Below, in pieces: positions 11,329 to 63,608 of a stretch of DNA of 64,000 nucleotides; position 1 is the first letter of the stretch; each line of letters starts with the position of its first letter. Position numbers and translations under genes: made by a program. The notes beneath the pieces are model-generated. The model was not told the origin of the DNA. It worked only from the letters and a program-made list of their open reading frames with translations, and searched no databases. Source of the stretch: Candidatus Eremiobacteraceae bacterium. GTDB taxonomy: Bacteria > Vulcanimicrobiota > Vulcanimicrobiia > Eremiobacterales > Eremiobacteraceae. The stretch is from contig DATCBN010000015.1 of assembly GCA_036511855.1 (NCBI GenBank), positions 1,566 through 65,565 on the forward strand, read 5' to 3'.

Positions 11329-11402
11329 GGCGACATAGCCAAGTGGTAAGGCAGGGCTCTGCAAAAGCCCGATCCCCAGTTCGACTCTGGGTGTCGCCTC
11401 CA
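11329..11402 (+). tRNA. tRNA-Cys (GCA), CCA encoded
   Basis: GGCGACA/TGTCGCC acceptor stem, GCC/GGC D stem, GGGCT-CTGCAAA-AGCCC anticodon arm (anticodon GCA), CCCAG-TTCGACT-CTGGG T arm, discriminator T plus CCA. Confidence 0.9.
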
Positions 11403-13620: not shown

Positions 13621-14289
13621 ATGAACCCGGCGCCGGGCCGTCCAACTAAGGTCTCCATGCGTTTATCAGGCGGCGCCAAAGCGCGCCGGCCACTGCTCGC
13701 GCCGAAGGGCGTGCGGACGCGGCCGACGTCGGCGAAAGTTCGTGAAGCGCTCTTCGCGGTTTTGGGCAAGCGGATCGAAGAGGCGCGCGTGCTCGACCTC
13801 TTCGCCGGATCCGGCGCGCTCGGCCTTGAGGCGATGTCGCGCGGAGCGGGTTCCGTGGTCTTCGTCGACAACGACGCGGACGCGGTCATGGCAGTGCGGC
13901 GCAACGCCGTCCGCGTCATCGAAGAGAAAGATCGCTTCCGCATCATGCCGATGCTCGCCATACGCGCTCTGCGGGTGCTTCGCGGCACGTTCGACATCGT
14001 CTTAGTCGACCCGCCGTACGATCGCGGAGCGCGCGAAGAACTCGCCACGCTCATGCAACGCGGTCTGGTCGCGACCGACGGCGTCGTCGTCGTCGAACAC
14101 CGCACGGGCGAGGACGCGCCGCTGCCTGAATCGCTTAAGGTGCTCAAGTCGGCGAAATACGGCGACACCACGCTGACCTTCGCCGCCGTGCGGCCGGCGC
14201 GCGAATCATTGCCGGAGGATCGCGCGGCGGAAAGCGTGCTCGCCACGAAATCGCGCCAACCCGCGCGCCGCGAGAAGAGCCGCCGTTGA
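13621..14289 (+). CDS. rsmD: 16S rRNA (guanine966-N2)-methyltransferase RsmD
   Basis: 'RPTSAKVREALFAVLG', 'VLDLFAGSGALGLEAMSRGA', 'DIVLVDPPY'. ATG 13621 lies 1 nt after the recG stop (alternative ATG 13657). The track ORF start at 13306 overlaps recG. Confidence 0.85.
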   Translation: MNPAPGRPTKVSMRLSGGAKARRPLLAPKGVRTRPTSAKVREALFAVLGKRIEEARVLDLFAGSGALGLEAMSRGAGSVVFVDNDADAVMAVRRNAVRVIEEKDRFRIMPMLAIRALRVLRGTFDIVLVDPPYDRGAREELATLMQRGLVATDGVVVVEHRTGEDAPLPESLKVLKSAKYGDTTLTFAAVRPARESLPEDRAAESVLATKSRQPARREKSRR

Positions 14290-14849
14290 AACCCGTACTA
14301 GGGCAAGCCGTACTAGGGCAAGCAACGCTTGCCCAACCGGACGCCCAGCCGGACGCCCAACCCGGTGGCCTCGTCGTCTACCCCGGCAGCTTCGACCCGA
14401 TGACAAACGGCCATCTCGACGTCGCGCGCCGGGCGGCCCGGAATTTCTCGCGATTGGTGGTCGCCGTCGTCTCCAACCCGAACAAACGCCCGATGTTCGC
14501 GCTAGCCGAACGTGTGGAAATGCTGCGCGAGGCCTGCGCCGACCTCGCTAACGTCGAAGTCGACGCCTTCGACGGCTTGCTTGTGGAGTACGTCAGGCGC
14601 CGGGGCGCGAGCTTGATCGTAAAGGGTCTGCGGATCGTCGCGGATTTCGAGGGCGAATTCACCATGGCGCTCCTCAATCGCAAATTGGCAGGTCACGTCG
14701 ACACGATGTTTCTGCCGGCCAGCGTCGAATATGCCTATGTGTCGTCGTCGAGTGTCCGCGAGATCTTCGCGCTGGGCGGCGATGTCTCGGAATTCGTGCC
14801 GCCATCGGTGCTGCGCGCCATGGCCCGTCTGCGGGGGAAGGTCTCATGA
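14286..14849 (+). CDS. coaD: phosphopantetheine adenylyltransferase CoaD with REP-derived N-terminal extension
   Basis: 'VYPGSFDPMTNGHLDV' (T/HxGH) and 'ISSTLVRE-like SSSVREI' motifs. The only in-frame ATG/GTG/TTG upstream of the GSFDP motif is TTG 14286, which overlaps the rsmD stop as TTGA. Confidence 0.85.
   Translation: MKPVLGQAVLGQATLAQPDAQPDAQPGGLVVYPGSFDPMTNGHLDVARRAARNFSRLVVAVVSNPNKRPMFALAERVEMLREACADLANVEVDAFDGLLVEYVRRRGASLIVKGLRIVADFEGEFTMALLNRKLAGHVDTMFLPASVEYAYVSSSSVREIFALGGDVSEFVPPSVLRAMARLRGKVS
14295..14334. repeat. REP-like element: partial copy plus full hairpin GGGCAAGC-AAC-GCTTGCCC
   Basis: GTACTAGGGCAAGC (14295-14308) is duplicated as CGTACTAGGGCAAGCAACGCTTGCCC (14309-34), followed by the tandem CCGGACGCCCA(G/A) x2 at 14337-14360. 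Confidence 0.85.
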
Positions 14850-16836: not shown

Positions 16837-16861
16837 TTTAATCATCTCAATTACTGTAATA

Positions 16862-16911
16862 GGGCAAGCACCGCTTGCCCAAAACCGGATGCGGGCAAGC
16901 GTAGCTTGCCC
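16862..16911. repeat. REP-like hairpin pair in inverted orientation
   Basis: GGGCAAGC-ACC-GCTTGCCC (16862-80, head GTAATA on the left) and GGGCAAGC-GTA-GCTTGCCC (16893-911, TAATAC on the right). Confidence 0.85.
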
Positions 16912-16934
16912 TAATACACGATAGGAAGCCAATA

Positions 16935-22912: not shown

Positions 22913-22944
22913 TAGGTCCCGTTCCGTAGGGGAATCTCGTACGA

Positions 22945-23067
22945 GGGCAAGCATCGCTTGCCCCGTTTTTGTTTCAACGCACGTACTAGGGCAAGCATCG
23001 CTTGCCCCGTCGTTCTGTAGGAGGGTGAGCAACGCTCACCCATTTTTTGGGCAAGCGATGCTTGCCC
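22945..23067. repeat. cluster of four REP-like hairpins (three forward, one reverse; one compensatory variant)
   Basis: GGGCAAGC-ATC-GCTTGCCC at 22945-63 and 22989-23007. GGGTGAGC-AAC-GCTCACCC at 23023-41. GGGCAAGC-GAT-GCTTGCCC at 23049-67. Confidence 0.9.
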
Positions 23068-23098
23068 TAGTTCGATTGCCCTCCTACAATAACGGCCC

Positions 23099-45831: not shown

Positions 45832-48800
45832 TTACGAGCACCCCATGCTTCTTCCACACGAATCGCAGACGTAGCACGCTCCGTTGCGCCGGGTCAGCGA
45901 TCCGCACCCGTCGCACACCGGAGCGTCGCCCATCATCGAGGCCAACTGCGCCTCGCGCGAGCGAAGAGCGTTTAGTTGGGCCGCGGCCGATGGGTCGATC
46001 GGAGTCGCCGGTGATTGGGCAAGCGATGCTTGCCCTAGTACGGGTTTGGATTGGGCAAGCGATGCGTGCCCTAGTACGGGTTTGGACGAACTACTCGAAC
46101 CTGTTTGTGCGGACGGCGACAACGCGCGGCGCGCGATGACCTTCGCCGATTCCTCCGAAGCTTGCTGCTCGGCGACCATCGTCTCGAATTCGGAGAGCGC
46201 GTGGTCCTCGTGGTGGGTGTCGTCGACGTCTTTGTCTTCAGGTTTGACCTGAACGAAGTCGGTCCGTCCGAGATACTCCATACCGAGCACGCGGAAGATG
46301 TAGTCGATGACGCTCGTGCACGATTTGATGTTCGGGTGATCGACGAAGCCGTTGGGCTCGAACCGTGTGAAAGTGAACTTCTCGACGAATTCTTCCAGCG
46401 GCACGCCATACTGCATTCCGATCGAAACGGCGATCGCGAAGCAGTTCATGAGACTGCGGAACGATGCGCCTTCTTTGTGCAGATCGACGAATATCTCGCC
46501 TAAGGTGCCATCGCCGTATTCACCGGTGCGCAAGAAGACGGTGTGCCCCGCGATTTTCGCCTTCTGCGTCCAGCCGCGCCGTTTTGCCGGCAGCCGGTTG
46601 CGTTCGAGCACTTGCGCGACTTTGCGTTTGAAGTCGGTGTTGTCGGTGTTGGCGAGGATGCGTTGCGCGGCCGCGAGGATTTCGTCCGGCCGCAGTTCAT
46701 CGGCCGCGGACTGACGCGCCGCGGCGAGGCGGTCTTCGAACTCTTTGGACAACGCCAGCTGACGATCTTCGGCGGACTCGCTCGATTTGTCGGAGCCCTT
46801 GGTGGAGAGCGGCTGCGATAGCTTGGATCCGTCTCGATACAGCGCGATAGCCTTTAGCCCGAGGTCCCAGGAGCGCATGTACGCCTCTTGGATGTCTTGG
46901 ACGGTGGCTTCCATCGGCATGTTGATGGTCTTGGAGATGGCGCCTGAGATGAACGGCTGCGCGGCAGCCATCATGCGCACGTGACCCATGTGCTGGATAT
47001 AGCGGCGGCCGATCTTGCCGCACTTATTCGCGCAATCGAACGCGGCGTAGTGCTCTTCTTTGAGATGCGGTGCGCCTTCCACGGTCATCGTGCCGCAGAT
47101 ATAGTTGTTGGCGGCGTCCACCTCGTCGCGCGAGAAGCCGAGCAATCGCAAGAGGTCGAAGTCCGTCGCGCTGTATTGTTCGGGAGTGAAGCCCAGCCGC
47201 TGAAGCGTGGCCTCGCCAAGGCTCCATTGATTGAAGCCGAAGCCGATCTCGAACACCGCCGGCAAGCTGCGCTCGATGGCTTGGATGTCTTGGTCGTTGA
47301 AGCCGCGCGCGCGCAACGTTTCGACATTGATGTACGGCGAGCCGTACAGCGTGCCCGCGCCTTTGGCGTAGCGGATGATGTCGTCGATCTGCGCCGGCGC
47401 GTAGCCGAAGTTTCGCAACGCCACCGGAATGGATTGGTTGATGATCTTGAAGTAGCCGCCGCCTGAGAGCTTTTTGAACTTCACGAGCGCGAAGTCGGGC
47501 TCGATGCCGGTGGTGTCGCAATCCATCTGAAGGCCGATTGTTCCAGTAGGTGCAATGCATGTGGCCTGCGCGTTGCGATAGCCATGTTCTTCGCCAAGTT
47601 CGAGCGCCCGATCCCACGCTGCCCGCGCAGCGGCTAGCAGATACGGCGGGCACAACGTCTGGTCGATGCCCATCGGAACGACAGACACTTCTTCGTATTC
47701 CGCACCCGGTGCGTTGTATGCCGCGCGACGATGATTGCGCATGACGCGCAGCATGTCGTCGGAATTTTCTCTATAACGCGAAAACGGCCCAAGTTCGCCG
47801 GCCATTTCGGCCGACGCAGCATACGACTCACCCGTCAAGATTGCAGAGATCGCTCCAGATATCGCGAGCGCTCGAGGAGAATCGTACGGAATACCGGCGA
47901 CCATAAGCATCGTGCCGAGATTCGCATAGCCAAGACCGAGAGTGCGATACTCGTACGACTTTCGTGCGATGGATTGACTTGGAAAGTGCGCCATGAGCAC
48001 GGAGATCTCGAGCACCATCGTCCACAGCCGGATGGCATGACGATACGCTTCTACGTCGACGGTGTTCTTTTCGGCGTCGAAGAACTTCATCAAGTTTATA
48101 CTTGCCAAGTTGCAAGCTGTGTCGTCCAAGAACACGTACTCGGAGCAGTTGTGCACGATCAAGCCGTTGGCGACGAAATGGTGCGTGTCGGATTCGGTGA
48201 GATCGAAGACGGGCTCGAGCCCCAGGGCCTCAATTGTGTCGACTTCATCGACCAACGGTTCGGCGTACGTCGCCACATCGCGATTGATCGCGGCGAGCGC
48301 ATCGGCCTTTGCGGTTACCGGATCGAAGCCAATGTGCTGTTCGAATAATACGCGCGACGCACGGCTGACCCGCAGCGAATGCATCTCTTTCACTGGATAT
48401 GTGCGCATCCCGCCGCGGCCATCCGGCAACGCGGCTTCGAGCTTGCCATTGCGACGGCCGGAATAGATCTTCGCTTTGATGCCGAAGGAGAGCAGAAGTA
48501 GTTGAACCTGCTGGAGCAGTTCGAGCGATGTTGAATCGAGCGCCACATATTGGCTCTTGTCGCCGTAGTTGGCAACCGTGCCATCGGCGGAGAACAGGCC
48601 GCGAAGCACGAGACCGACGGATGCGCGGTCGAGTTCGTACACCGAGTCGGTGAATCGTTTCTGGTGGCTGCCCTGGTCGAGCACAGCGTATCGTTTGAAG
48701 ACGTCGACCACAGGTTGCGAGCCGAACGACAGCCGGGAAGTACTGGAGGTGTACGACGTGACCTGGACTTCGTCGTTTCGTCCGACGGAGCCGATGGCTT

Positions 48801-50400
48801 TCCGCGCGCGCTTTTCGTCGTTGACGGCGAGCGCGATCTTTTCGAGAATCGGCCACTCCGCCGCGGCCATGACTAGAGTTACATTCTCGCGGGCGCGCCC
48901 CGCGACGGTCGCATGAGCAAGATAGCCGTCGCCTACGGCGGCGCCGATGCCAAGCGCGATATCGTCGACAAGTTTGACCGAGCCGAAGCCCGATCCAGCA
49001 AGCGCGACGAGATCGCCCTTTTGCAGTTCGTTCGCGGCGACGTCGCCGCGCGACTTCGTGAACACCTTGTGGTCGCCGGTGAGGCGAAGCGAATAGCCGG
49101 CCTTGGTGCGCAGGCGGAACACTTGCTTCGTGCCGGTTGGGAAAATGCGGGAGACGAAGTGCGCCTTGCCGTCGGAGCCTATGACGAATGCGGACTTGCC
49201 GACGAGGGCATCGATGCGGTGCAGGCCGTCGGCTGTCGCGACGAATGTATCGCCCGTGACACACGGATTTGTCGCCCGGATCCGTCCGCCCTTAGGCGAT
49301 GTATGCCATGAATTGATGATGTCGTCATATTGCACGCCTGGATCTGCGCACGCCCACGCGGCGCGGCCGATCTGATCCCACAGATCGCGCGCGCGAACGG
49401 TGCGCGCCACCGAGCGATCCTTGCGCCACAGCAGATCCCACGAACCGTCGTTGCGCACGGCGTCGATGAACTTGTCCGGCACGCGCACGGAGTTGTTGGA
49501 GTTCTGACCGGAGACCGTCTGATAGGCCTCGCCCTCGTACGAACTGTCGTAGCCGGCGGCCATCAGCGCGGCGACTTTCTTTTCTTCTTGCACTTTCCAA
49601 TTGATGAACTTGTCGATGTCAGGGTGGTCCATGTCGAGGATGACCATCTTCGCGGCGCGCCGGGTTGTGCCGCCGCTCTTGATTGCGCCTGCGGCTCGAT
49701 CGCCGACTTTGAGGAAGGACATGAGGCCGCTCGACGTGCCGCCGCCGCCTAGCTTTTCGCCTTCGGCGCGGATGTTCGAGAAATTGCTTCCCGTGCCCGA
49801 ACCCATCTTGAAGAGGCGCGCTTCGCGCACCCACAGATCCATGATGCCGTTTTCATTGACGAGATCGTCTTCGACCGACTGGATAAAACAGGCGTGCGCC
49901 TGCACGCGTGTGTACGCGTCTTCGGAGCGCACGAGCTCTTGCGTATCGGGGTCGACGTAATAGTGTCCTTGCGGCGTGCCGGTTATCCCGTACGCATAAG
50001 CCAGCCCGGTGTTGAACCACTGCGGCGAGTTGGGCGCGGCCATCTGATTGATGAGCATGTGTGTGATCTCGGCATCGAACGCGGCAGCGTCTTCGTCGGT
50101 GTCGAAATATTTATAACGGCGTCCCCAATCGGTCCAGCATCCAGCTAAACGGCGCACCACCTGTCGCGCCGACGTTTCGCTGCCAAGCGAACTATCGGGT
50201 TGGGGCACCCCGGCTTTGCGGAAATATTTCTGCGCGAGGATGTCGGTGGCGACTTGCGACCACGCTTTCGGCACTTCGACATCGCGCATCTCGAAGACGA
50301 CGGTGCCGTCGGGCTCGCGGATGACCGATTCCCGGCTATCCCATTCGATGGTGTCAAGCGGATCGGTGCCTTGTTTGGTGAAACGCCGTTGGATCTTCAT
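45832..50400 (-). CDS. nrdJ: adenosylcobalamin-dependent ribonucleotide reductase (class II, NrdJ), intein-containing precursor
   Basis: '[11 protein letters not shown]', '[12 protein letters not shown]', 'TNPC|...|[18 protein letters not shown]' split by an intein, 'ISKTINMP', C-terminal zinc ribbon '[21 protein letters not shown]'. Confidence 0.92.
46017..46071. repeat. two REP-like hairpins (36-nt unit x2) inside the nrdJ coding sequence
   Basis: GGGCAAGC-GAT-GCTTGCCC-TAGTAC (46017-41) and GGGCAAGC-GAT-GCGTGCCC-TAGTAC (46053-77). The 36-nt unit spans 46014-49 and 46050-85. Confidence 0.9.
48148..49263 (-). mobile_element. intein (372 aa) with LAGLIDADG homing-endonuclease domain inside nrdJ
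   Basis: Residues 380-751 of the precursor. Block A '[13 protein letters not shown]', block B 'LTGDHKVFT', LAGLIDADG motifs '[12 protein letters not shown]' and '[12 protein letters not shown]', block F/G '[13 protein letters not shown]' followed by +1 Cys. Codons checked: TGT at 49261-63, AAC at 48148-50. Confidence 0.88.
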
Positions 50401-63470: not shown

Positions 63471-63536
63471 GCGTTGCGTGTATGCTATGGTTTCGCTATT
63501 CGAGTTCGTAGGAATTTGTTTTCTCCGTTTGTATTA

Positions 63537-63591
63537 GGGCAAGCATCGCTTGCCTACTGGGTAATGCGACGTGGGCAAGCGATGCTTGCCC
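63537..63591. repeat. REP-like hairpin pair in inverted orientation
   Basis: GTATTA-GGGCAAGC-ATC-GCTTGCCT (63531-55) and GGGCAAGC-GAT-GCTTGCCC-TCCTAC (63573-97). Confidence 0.85.
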
Positions 63592-63608
63592 TCCTACATT
63601 CTAATTCG

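Follow-up and report, generated by a model that had tools for sequence, protein, structure and literature searches.

A tandemly duplicated REP palindrome lying in frame within the zinc-tail linker of a class II ribonucleotide reductase gene from an uncultured member of the Eremiobacterota

The DNA analyzed here, hereafter termed the window, comprises 64,000 nucleotides of contig DATCBN010000015.1 (assembly GCA_036511855.1), and its host is an uncultured soil bacterium of the Eremiobacterota (Vulcanimicrobiota). On its minus strand the window carries nrdJ, an open reading frame (ORF) of 1522 residues (45832-50400, stop codon included), within which two copies of a repetitive extragenic palindromic (REP) element lie side by side and in frame (46014-46085). 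The nrdJ ORF matches the Pfam families Ribonuc_red_2_N (PF08471; 5e-36), Ribonuc_red_lgC (PF02867; 4e-125) and TSCPD (PF12637), and homologues of its product are annotated as vitamin B12-dependent ribonucleotide reductases. The joint presence of the Ribonuc_red_2_N, barrel-domain and TSCPD matches assigns the ORF to the class II (NrdJ, B12-dependent) reductases, and the protein possesses the N-terminal domain, the ten-stranded barrel domain and the C-terminal domain with six conserved cysteines by which this class is recognized. In sequence, it is nearest to proteins from Eremiobacterota.

The C-terminal domain of NrdJ enzymes measures 150-220 residues and ends in six conserved cysteines, which bind zinc, carry reducing equivalents to the active site and re-reduce it (Loderer et al., 2017; PMC5704485). 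In the window, the TSCPD domain (residues 1285-1373; 46282-46548, minus strand; Pfam) is followed by a hypervariable linker delimited by the alignment of orthologues (residues 1414-1468; 45997-46161, minus strand), and the protein ends in the six-cysteine zinc-binding tail (residues 1496-1522; 45835-45915, minus strand), whose cysteine columns are invariant in the alignment. The linker is the host of the REP units; these are consequently situated inside the cysteine-rich C-terminal domain, after the TSCPD part and a helix and before the six-cysteine tail, which lies in frame 3' of them. Compared with the NrdJ proteins considered by Loderer et al. (2017), all six cysteines are present here, and the linker in front of them is longer by 24 REP-encoded residues; this linker is not discussed in that paper, in which the word does not occur. 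An AlphaFold model of the last 320 residues of the window protein positions the REP-coded residues (237-260 of the model) within the coil of lowest confidence (226-265), with scores of about 80 for the cysteine tail; as a whole, the model is of low quality, its mean predicted local distance difference test (pLDDT) value being 52.7.

Tandem Repeats Finder detects the two REP units as a period-36 array at 46013-46086 with 2.1 copies, 97% matches and no indels. Unit A, the first in the gene, occupies 46050-46085 on the minus strand and encodes residues 1439-1450 (codon register 46051-46086); unit B, the second, occupies 46014-46049 on the same strand and encodes residues 1451-1462 (codon register 46015-46050). 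The units are one base apart over 36 nt, with a chance expectation of 0 matches, and together they contribute the 24 encoded residues. In each of them lies a GTAG-type REP of 25 nt, GTACTA-GGGCA(A/C)GC-ATC-GCTTGCCC, whose stem has 8 bp and whose loop has 3 nt. In copy B (46017-46041, minus strand), the tag GTACTA is followed by GGGCAAGC-ATC-GCTTGCCC and the stem is perfect; in copy A (46053-46077, minus strand), it is followed by GGGCACGC-ATC-GCTTGCCC, and one stem mismatch has arisen from an A>C change that replaces Gln by His. A GSSSSS run directly precedes the units on the sense strand, and the frame is then open through to the six-cysteine tail. The sequence of the element leaves five of its six reading frames open, and the one used in nrdJ specifies only Val, Leu, Gly, Gln, Ala and Ser. 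Folded as isolated RNA hairpins, the perfect copy B and the mismatched copy A are predicted to reach -14.6 and -10.4 kcal/mol, respectively, and a region of 121 nt around the units has a folding energy of -36.7 kcal/mol (z = -3.2 versus shuffles).

An initial annotation of this DNA had described a 36-nt unit with a REP hairpin that is tandemly duplicated in the nrdJ ORF, a stem mismatch in the second copy as counted on the plus strand, an ORF that stays open with the zinc tail in frame, and two hairpins in the mRNA. The Tandem Repeats Finder and Pfam results agree with the first of these statements, the mismatched plus-strand copy is seen as GCGTGCCC, the frame is unbroken from 50400 to 45832 with all six cysteines intact, and the predicted RNA folds reproduce both hairpins. 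Its account calls for refinement in some respects. The description of nrdJ as essential is an assumption. The Ser-rich linker that was placed between the catalytic body and the zinc ribbon does have its serine run, but it is located inside the cysteine-rich C-terminal domain; and the duplicated unit, which does contain the REP hairpin, exceeds it, since 11 nt of flank accompany the 25-nt REP and a TC microhomology marks the boundaries of the unit. An interpretation of the nrdJ hairpins as an intrinsic terminator or a promoter is ruled out, as they are followed by AAUCC and AAUCA and not by a U-run, and a scan for terminators and promoters returned no site at the units. A scan of the window against Rfam at the gathering threshold found nothing at nrdJ; its sole match is a tRNA gene at 11329-11399 on the plus strand.

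The nrdJ gene is also host to an intein of 372 residues (48148-49263, minus strand; residues 380-751; Pfam Intein_splicing and LAGLIDADG_3), which carries a LAGLIDADG homing-endonuclease domain and has the junctions ATNP/CVTGDT and LIVHN/CSEYVF. Its insertion at ATNP/C means that the +1 cysteine falls within a conserved NPC motif, which we take to be the catalytic cysteine region of NrdJ. With both an intein and REP units, this single gene therefore harbors two unrelated selfish elements.

The two palindromes in nrdJ are members of a repeat family. When the window was searched for the 19-nt hairpin GGGCAAGC-NNN-GCTTGCCC with up to three mismatches, ten sites were found (14316, 16862, 16893, 22945, 22989, 23049, 46017, 46053, 63537 and 63573), with 18 strand-matches versus 0.05 expected from shuffles, so that a repeat family is truly present. 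Eight of the ten copies are intergenic; the remaining two are the nrdJ units, whose DNA agrees exactly with the genomic family over the 25-nt element, that is, over tag and stem-loop. From 109 oriented copies of the window and related genomes (hairpins with at most one mismatch), we derived the family consensus (C/T)GTA(G/C/T)TA-GGGCAAGC-A(T/A)C-GCTTGCCC; the screens for pairing and for ORFs made use of 128 copies with at most two mismatches. The GTA triplet of the tag is 92-96% conserved across the 109 copies, although it was outside the search pattern, and the fourth base of the tag is G in 61% of them, which makes the tag one of the GTAG type; the nrdJ copies bear its minority form, GTAC. 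Adjacent copies form 13 convergent inverted pairs, eight direct pairs and no divergent pair. By these traits, the family matches GTAG-type REPs and REPINs in their published definition (Di Nocera, De Gregorio and Rocco, 2013, BMC Genomics 14:522, PMC3733652; Bertels and Rainey, 2011, PMC3116915).

Outside the window, the family is concentrated in close relatives. When 185,579 species-representative genomes were scanned for TAGGGCAAGCNNNGCTTGCCC, at least 120 stretches matched, and 85 of the 120 matches listed come from three metagenome-assembled genomes (MAGs): 39 from JABCYQ01 (Vulcanimicrobiota MAG31), 45 from DATBOZ01 (Candidatus Eremiobacteraceae SMAG_U4064) and one from PLED01. If one mismatch is allowed, the analyzed parts of JABCYQ01 and DATBOZ01 hold at least 45 and at least 53 copies, adding up to at least 98 sites. 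Syntenic DNA of DATBOZ01 is about 81% identical to the window, the nearest among the loci that were compared. Sister REP subfamilies with compensated stems (GGGCGAGC/GCTCGCCC and GGGTGAGC/GCTCACCC) occur as well, and copies of a separate hairpin family (GGCCGACC...GGTCGGCC) are interspersed among those of the main one; sites of these subfamilies or of the other hairpin family were found at 23024-23042 in the window and in the related loci L010, L048, L095 and L107.

The history of the nrdJ insertion can be read from its orthologues. We compared NrdJ C-termini from protein matches and from 32 metagenome loci, and the linker is complete in 30 sequences, the window included. The flanks of the linker (the TSCPD part, an EFE..V..QQ helix, a second helix and the six-cysteine tail) are near-invariant, and the sequence of the intervening segment is hypervariable. 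Counted between the EQQ motif and MGDAP, this segment has 48-66 residues in the 29 other orthologues; the window, at 75 residues, has the longest of the 30. In 26 of the 30 orthologues, both the hairpin and a GQASLAQ-like peptide are absent. Three further orthologues, from close relatives, possess exactly one unit each, at the same position as the window array: L001 (JGI 3300045982; sense strand AAGCCC GCATCA GGGCAAGC ACC GCTTGCCC; peptide KPASGQAPLAQ), L122 (Ga0066790; AAACCC ATGACA GGGCAAGC AGC GCTCGCCC; peptide KPMTGQAALAQ) and L154 (ENA ERZ27310957; AGACCC GTCGGC GGGCAAGC ATC GCTCGCCC; peptide RPVGGQASLAQ). The nrdJ orthologues thus document, at the level of sequence, a series of zero, one and two REP copies. 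Among the 26 sequences without a REP is L123 (Ga0210384_10000466), which probably comes from the MAG JABCYQ01 that is itself rich in the same REP family. At the REP position, L123 (3180-3215) and L124 read ...CTCGGAGCGCAGCCCACGGTCGCCAAC, a sequence for which the alignment gives an identity of about 57-59% with the REP unit; this likeness is suggestive only, and it may represent either a fully decayed remnant or a chance resemblance in GC-rich DNA. An additional hairpin, CTACGA-GGGCACC-TACCAA-GGTGCCC, which the window lacks, is present just after the nrdJ stop codon of L001 (690-725) and is probably another REP-like insertion.

Several features tie the four REP-bearing lineages together. The linker motif AKVIAR is common to the window, L001, L122 and L154, and is missing from L123 and L124. 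The REP is preceded by the 5' flank AA(A/G)CCC in the window, L001 and L122 and by AGACCC in L154; since this flank is outside the family consensus and yet common to the REP-bearing lineages, it points to one ancestral insertion in nrdJ. The presence of a single unit at the same place in three relatives indicates that the insertion is old, and that the 36-nt duplication is recent and lineage-specific. A recent local tandem duplication, as opposed to a second transposition, is further indicated as the source of the second copy by the single difference in 36 nt and by the 11-nt spacer AATCCAAACCC, which is identical in the two window copies; all other direct REP pairs that we found have unrelated spacers. 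The proposal of the initial annotation that the unit is a REP insertion and not an ancestral piece of linker is thereby upheld by the alignment of orthologues that it had suggested, with 26 sequences devoid of the peptide. The 24-residue insertion that it described has a history in two stages: one unit is ancestral to a small clade, and only the duplication is specific to the window lineage.

We consider it likely that a member of the REP family inserted into nrdJ in the ancestor of this small clade, was later duplicated in tandem, and has persisted as a tolerated passenger of the linker. A mobile, non-autonomous 25-nt REP of the GTAG type would have entered nrdJ in this ancestor and would have landed in a length- and sequence-variable, probably disordered tether of the six-cysteine zinc tail, a site whose permissiveness is evident from the natural length variation of 48-66 residues. 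Its sense orientation and the frame V-L-G-Q-A-S-L-A would have provided a stop-free stretch composed only of small flexible residues; for this reason, we propose, NrdJ remained functional and passed the insertion on by descent. In the window lineage only, a 36-nt segment made up of the REP and its 11-nt flank would subsequently have been duplicated in tandem, adding 12 residues, likely by replication slippage aided by the hairpin and the TC microhomology. The REP in nrdJ would then most likely be a tolerated passenger that is read as linker and has no dedicated function. The repeat, its membership in the family, the open frame, the orthologues with no or one copy and the recurrence of the frame in other genes are seen in the sequences themselves; transposition as the origin, slippage, neutrality and the actual translation of the units are inferences from them. 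A decorated NrdJ that is made and active would be in line with the conservation of reading frame and tail over four diverged lineages.

Several observations speak against this history. The stems are far more conserved than silent sites while the tag has decayed, and pure neutrality does not predict this. The 75-residue linker of the window lies outside the range of the other orthologues, and its length may entail some cost. The AlphaFold model of the C-terminus gives weak support to a disordered linker and is too poor to prove it. In addition, neither the window nor about 0.9 Mb of related loci (analyzed as 8-kb pieces) yielded a RAYT (REP-associated tyrosine transposase): a tblastn search with an E. 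coli RAYT query gave only noise, its best match being an AcrB-like efflux pump in L095, and no Y1_Tnp was present among the 20 window ORFs scanned against Pfam. A gene flanked by REPs in L048 was identified as prs and is no transposase.

The conservation of the stems deserves a closer look, as it is the basis of a competing explanation in which the hairpin has been exapted as a selected RNA or DNA structure in the nrdJ coding region. It might then make ribosomes pause ahead of zinc-tail folding, influence mRNA stability or processing, or offer a binding site for a protein, and its duplication would be adaptive by doubling the signal. At third positions of same-amino-acid codons in the flanking blocks, any two of the window, L001, L122, L154 and L123 are only 53-65% identical, so that silent sites are near saturation. 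Nevertheless, each pairwise comparison of window copy B, L001, L122 and L154 shows zero or one difference among the 16 stem bases and likewise zero or one in the 3-nt loop, and linker sequence has changed; the 6-nt tag, in contrast, differs at three to five of its six positions per pair among the four lineages, being intact (GTACTA) in the window and decayed in the other three. The limits of conservation thus coincide with the boundaries of the hairpin and not with codon positions: the middle base of the loop, a first codon position, varies to give Ser, Pro or Ala, so that what is conserved is the hairpin, and neither its codons nor its peptide. That the nrdJ region folds better than its shuffles also fits a selected structure. 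However, where REP copies are retained at orthologous intergenic sites, their stems are perfect and their loops and tags altered; the copies at 14316 and 16862, compared with DATBOZ01, have kept their stems in just this manner, so that stem persistence appears to be a property of the REP family and not of an nrdJ-specific function. Only four lineages are available, none of them displays a compensatory double change at the nrdJ locus, and each of the two observed stem changes, A>C in copy A of the window and T>C in L122 and L154, disrupts a base pair and has been tolerated. Moreover, 26 orthologues function without any hairpin, and templated correction of quasi-palindromes could preserve stems without selection. 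We regard exaptation as unlikely on this balance; the conserved stems could result from structural selection, from templated self-correction of quasi-palindromes or from a limited amount of conversion.

The single-origin scheme could also be wrong in that the REPs of the window, L001, L122 and L154 represent independent insertions, re-insertions or conversions at a hotspot in the linker. The linker is indeed too variable for the insertion point to be placed to the nucleotide, the intact GTACTA tag is found in the window only, as if this copy were younger or refreshed, and the window and DATBOZ01 do differ in the REPs that occupy orthologous intergenic sites. Repeated arrival would have to account, however, for the same non-consensus flank in three of the four lineages (with AGACCC in L154), for one frame and one orientation in all four directly before a conserved (x)DP..AAQLNAL block, for a T>C stem change common to L122 and L154, and for tags whose decay in three lineages points to age and not to recent arrival; we hold it to be very improbable. 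Even less credence is due to the notion that assembly error produced the second unit by spuriously expanding a single one in a short-read MAG. The source of the window is probably metagenome-assembled, its closest relatives all being MAGs, and all three REP-bearing relatives have a single unit; but an array of 72 nt is below normal read length and poses no challenge to an assembler, the one-base difference between the copies is not expected from a pure expansion, and the reading frame is exactly kept. An old insertion with a recent tandem duplication, tolerated in the linker, is therefore the reading that we adopt.

The nrdJ units are not the only in-frame members of their family in this lineage. 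We screened long ORFs that run through the 128 hairpins and checked candidates against Pfam, NCBIfam and PDB. In JABCYQ010000015.1 (L015:4190-4208), a perfect REP encodes VVGQASLAP within a 1466-residue E2-E1 2-oxoacid dehydrogenase fusion, in the linker between the E3-binding domain (residues 254-285) and the acyltransferase catalytic domain (residues 316-546). In DATBOZ010000124.1 (L118:589-607), a REP with one stem mismatch encodes VGGQASVAQ in uvrA, within a 20-residue insertion relative to the solved UvrA structure 9gxk_A, between the UvrA_inter and UvrA_DNA-bind domains. In DATBOZ010000128.1 (L048:3585-3617), the prs ORF (ribose-phosphate diphosphokinase) ends in the REP-coded ...DPVLGQATLAQRT followed by its stop codon, as a C-terminal extension of about 40 residues past the family profile, and a second REP is found just upstream of its start. 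The orientation and frame of the REPs in these other genes are those of the nrdJ copies; if the five open frames were equally likely, the calculated probability of three further independent matches to the nrdJ frame is about 0.008. Such recurrence is compatible with a filter that lets harmless peptides pass, with insertion being biased in orientation, or with the two together. Two additional cases from JABCYQ01, again in this frame, are uncertain, an in-frame REP at the N-terminus, possibly in a signal region, of an oligopeptidase A/Dcp-like M3 peptidase (L049:5332) and one in a 707-residue Pro/Ala-rich ORF that has no family match (L017:3847). Long ORFs at L042:7036, L113:5627 and L117:6828 were dismissed as spurious, as they had no family match, used another frame or coincided with a known intergenic site.

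The eight intergenic copies of the window display the arrangements that are common in the family. Convergent inverted, REPIN-like pairs lie between yceD-like and fabH-like genes (16856-16917) and between two aminotransferase class-III ORFs (63531-63597), and a cluster of three REPs, two direct and one inverted, is found at 22939-23073; in the spacer between its second and third copies, at about 23024-23042, sits the related GGGTGAGC/GCTCACCC hairpin. A single copy on the plus strand (14310-14334) is located just upstream of a coaD-like gene and has the flank AAACCCGTACTAGGGCAAGC in common with the nrdJ copies; it falls inside the over-long N-terminus of the coaD-like ORF, whose Pfam match begins only at residue 31. 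Around this copy (14286-14340), the 5' half of the REP is partly duplicated (AAACCCGTACTAGGGCAAGC-CGTACTAGGGCAAGCAACGCTTGCCC), and the left flank AAACCC is the same as that of the nrdJ copies. When the sites at 16856-16917, 63531-63597 and 14310-14334 are compared with their counterparts in L042, L004 and L106, the REP content differs between the window and DATBOZ01: a pair in the window corresponds to a single copy in DATBOZ01, and at the 63.5-kb site the orientation has changed as well.

In-frame REPs have been described before. GTAG and CGTC REPs were reported inside genes of several species, many of them replication and repair genes such as uvrA; more than half of these intragenic inserts are dimers or groups that code for 20-30 residues, and the same REP peptide recurs across proteins, as in the E2 subunits of the 2-oxoglutarate and pyruvate dehydrogenases of Opitutus terrae (Di Nocera et al., 2013; PMC3733652). 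As they reside in flexible linkers, the inserts were considered probably neutral by these authors. The elements studied here resemble those REPs in being short GC-rich stem-loops with a GTAG-like tag that are mostly extragenic, often arranged as inverted pairs and, in a minority, located in frame. The 24-residue insert derived from a dimer in nrdJ and the insertions in uvrA and in the E2-E1 linker of sister MAGs parallel the published cases, and the latter site is of the same kind as that in the E2 subunits of O. terrae. The differences lie in the phylum (Eremiobacterota/Vulcanimicrobiota), in the sequence of the stem, and in the nature of the nrdJ dimer, which is a recent direct tandem duplication of a REP with its flank and not an inverted REPIN-type dimer. 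The text and available supplements of that study mention no ribonucleotide reductase as a REP host, and our literature search found no report on REPs in Eremiobacterota. With REPIN-RAYT systems (Bertels and Rainey, 2011; bioRxiv 10.1101/2021.07.10.451892), the family shares the predominance of convergent inverted pairs, vertical persistence and conservation at orthologous sites between species. The nrdJ copies, in contrast, are single REPs or a direct duplicate and not REPIN doublets, and they are for this reason probably immobile remnants.

A second point of comparison are the Rickettsia palindromic elements (RPEs), the classic example of such insertions. RPE-1 elements are much longer, at about 100-150 bp, whereas the nrdJ element has 25 nt and the tag GTA(G/C)TA; it works like an RPE without being one. 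The hosts of RPEs are reduced obligate intracellular alphaproteobacteria, and there is no sequence similarity between the two kinds of element. According to Di Nocera et al. (2013), short RPEs bear a CGTC and not a GTAG tag. What unites both elements, according to the account of RPEs given there (Ogata et al., 2000, as cited in PMC3733652), is that they are selfish palindromes located in frame in housekeeping genes, whose products are thought to be functional, with inserts at permissive surface or linker positions. Collectively, in-frame decoration of housekeeping proteins by REPs is already known, and the nrdJ case is an ordinary but unusually well resolved example of it; new here are the ribonucleotide reductase host gene, the phylum Eremiobacterota, and the series from zero to one to two copies.

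The nrdJ locus provides a clean, datable case of a selfish palindrome joining a central enzyme of DNA-precursor synthesis, and it extends the in-frame decoration of proteins by REPs to the uncultured phylum Eremiobacterota. For annotators, it serves as a reminder that a REP hairpin within an ORF need not mean a pseudogene or a misassembly. The conserved stems offer a small, testable handle on selection versus templated repair in the upkeep of REP hairpins; should exaptation prove true, a hairpin of mobile-element origin would have a function, as RNA or as DNA, inside the coding region of nrdJ and perhaps of other genes of this lineage. At least 24 additional residues can apparently be accommodated in the tether of the NrdJ zinc tail, a finding of use to protein engineers and in considering how the tail reaches the active site. 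Finally, the targeting of uvrA and of E2 linkers in this lineage, as in Verrucomicrobia and Rickettsia, suggests that general rules govern where such elements survive.

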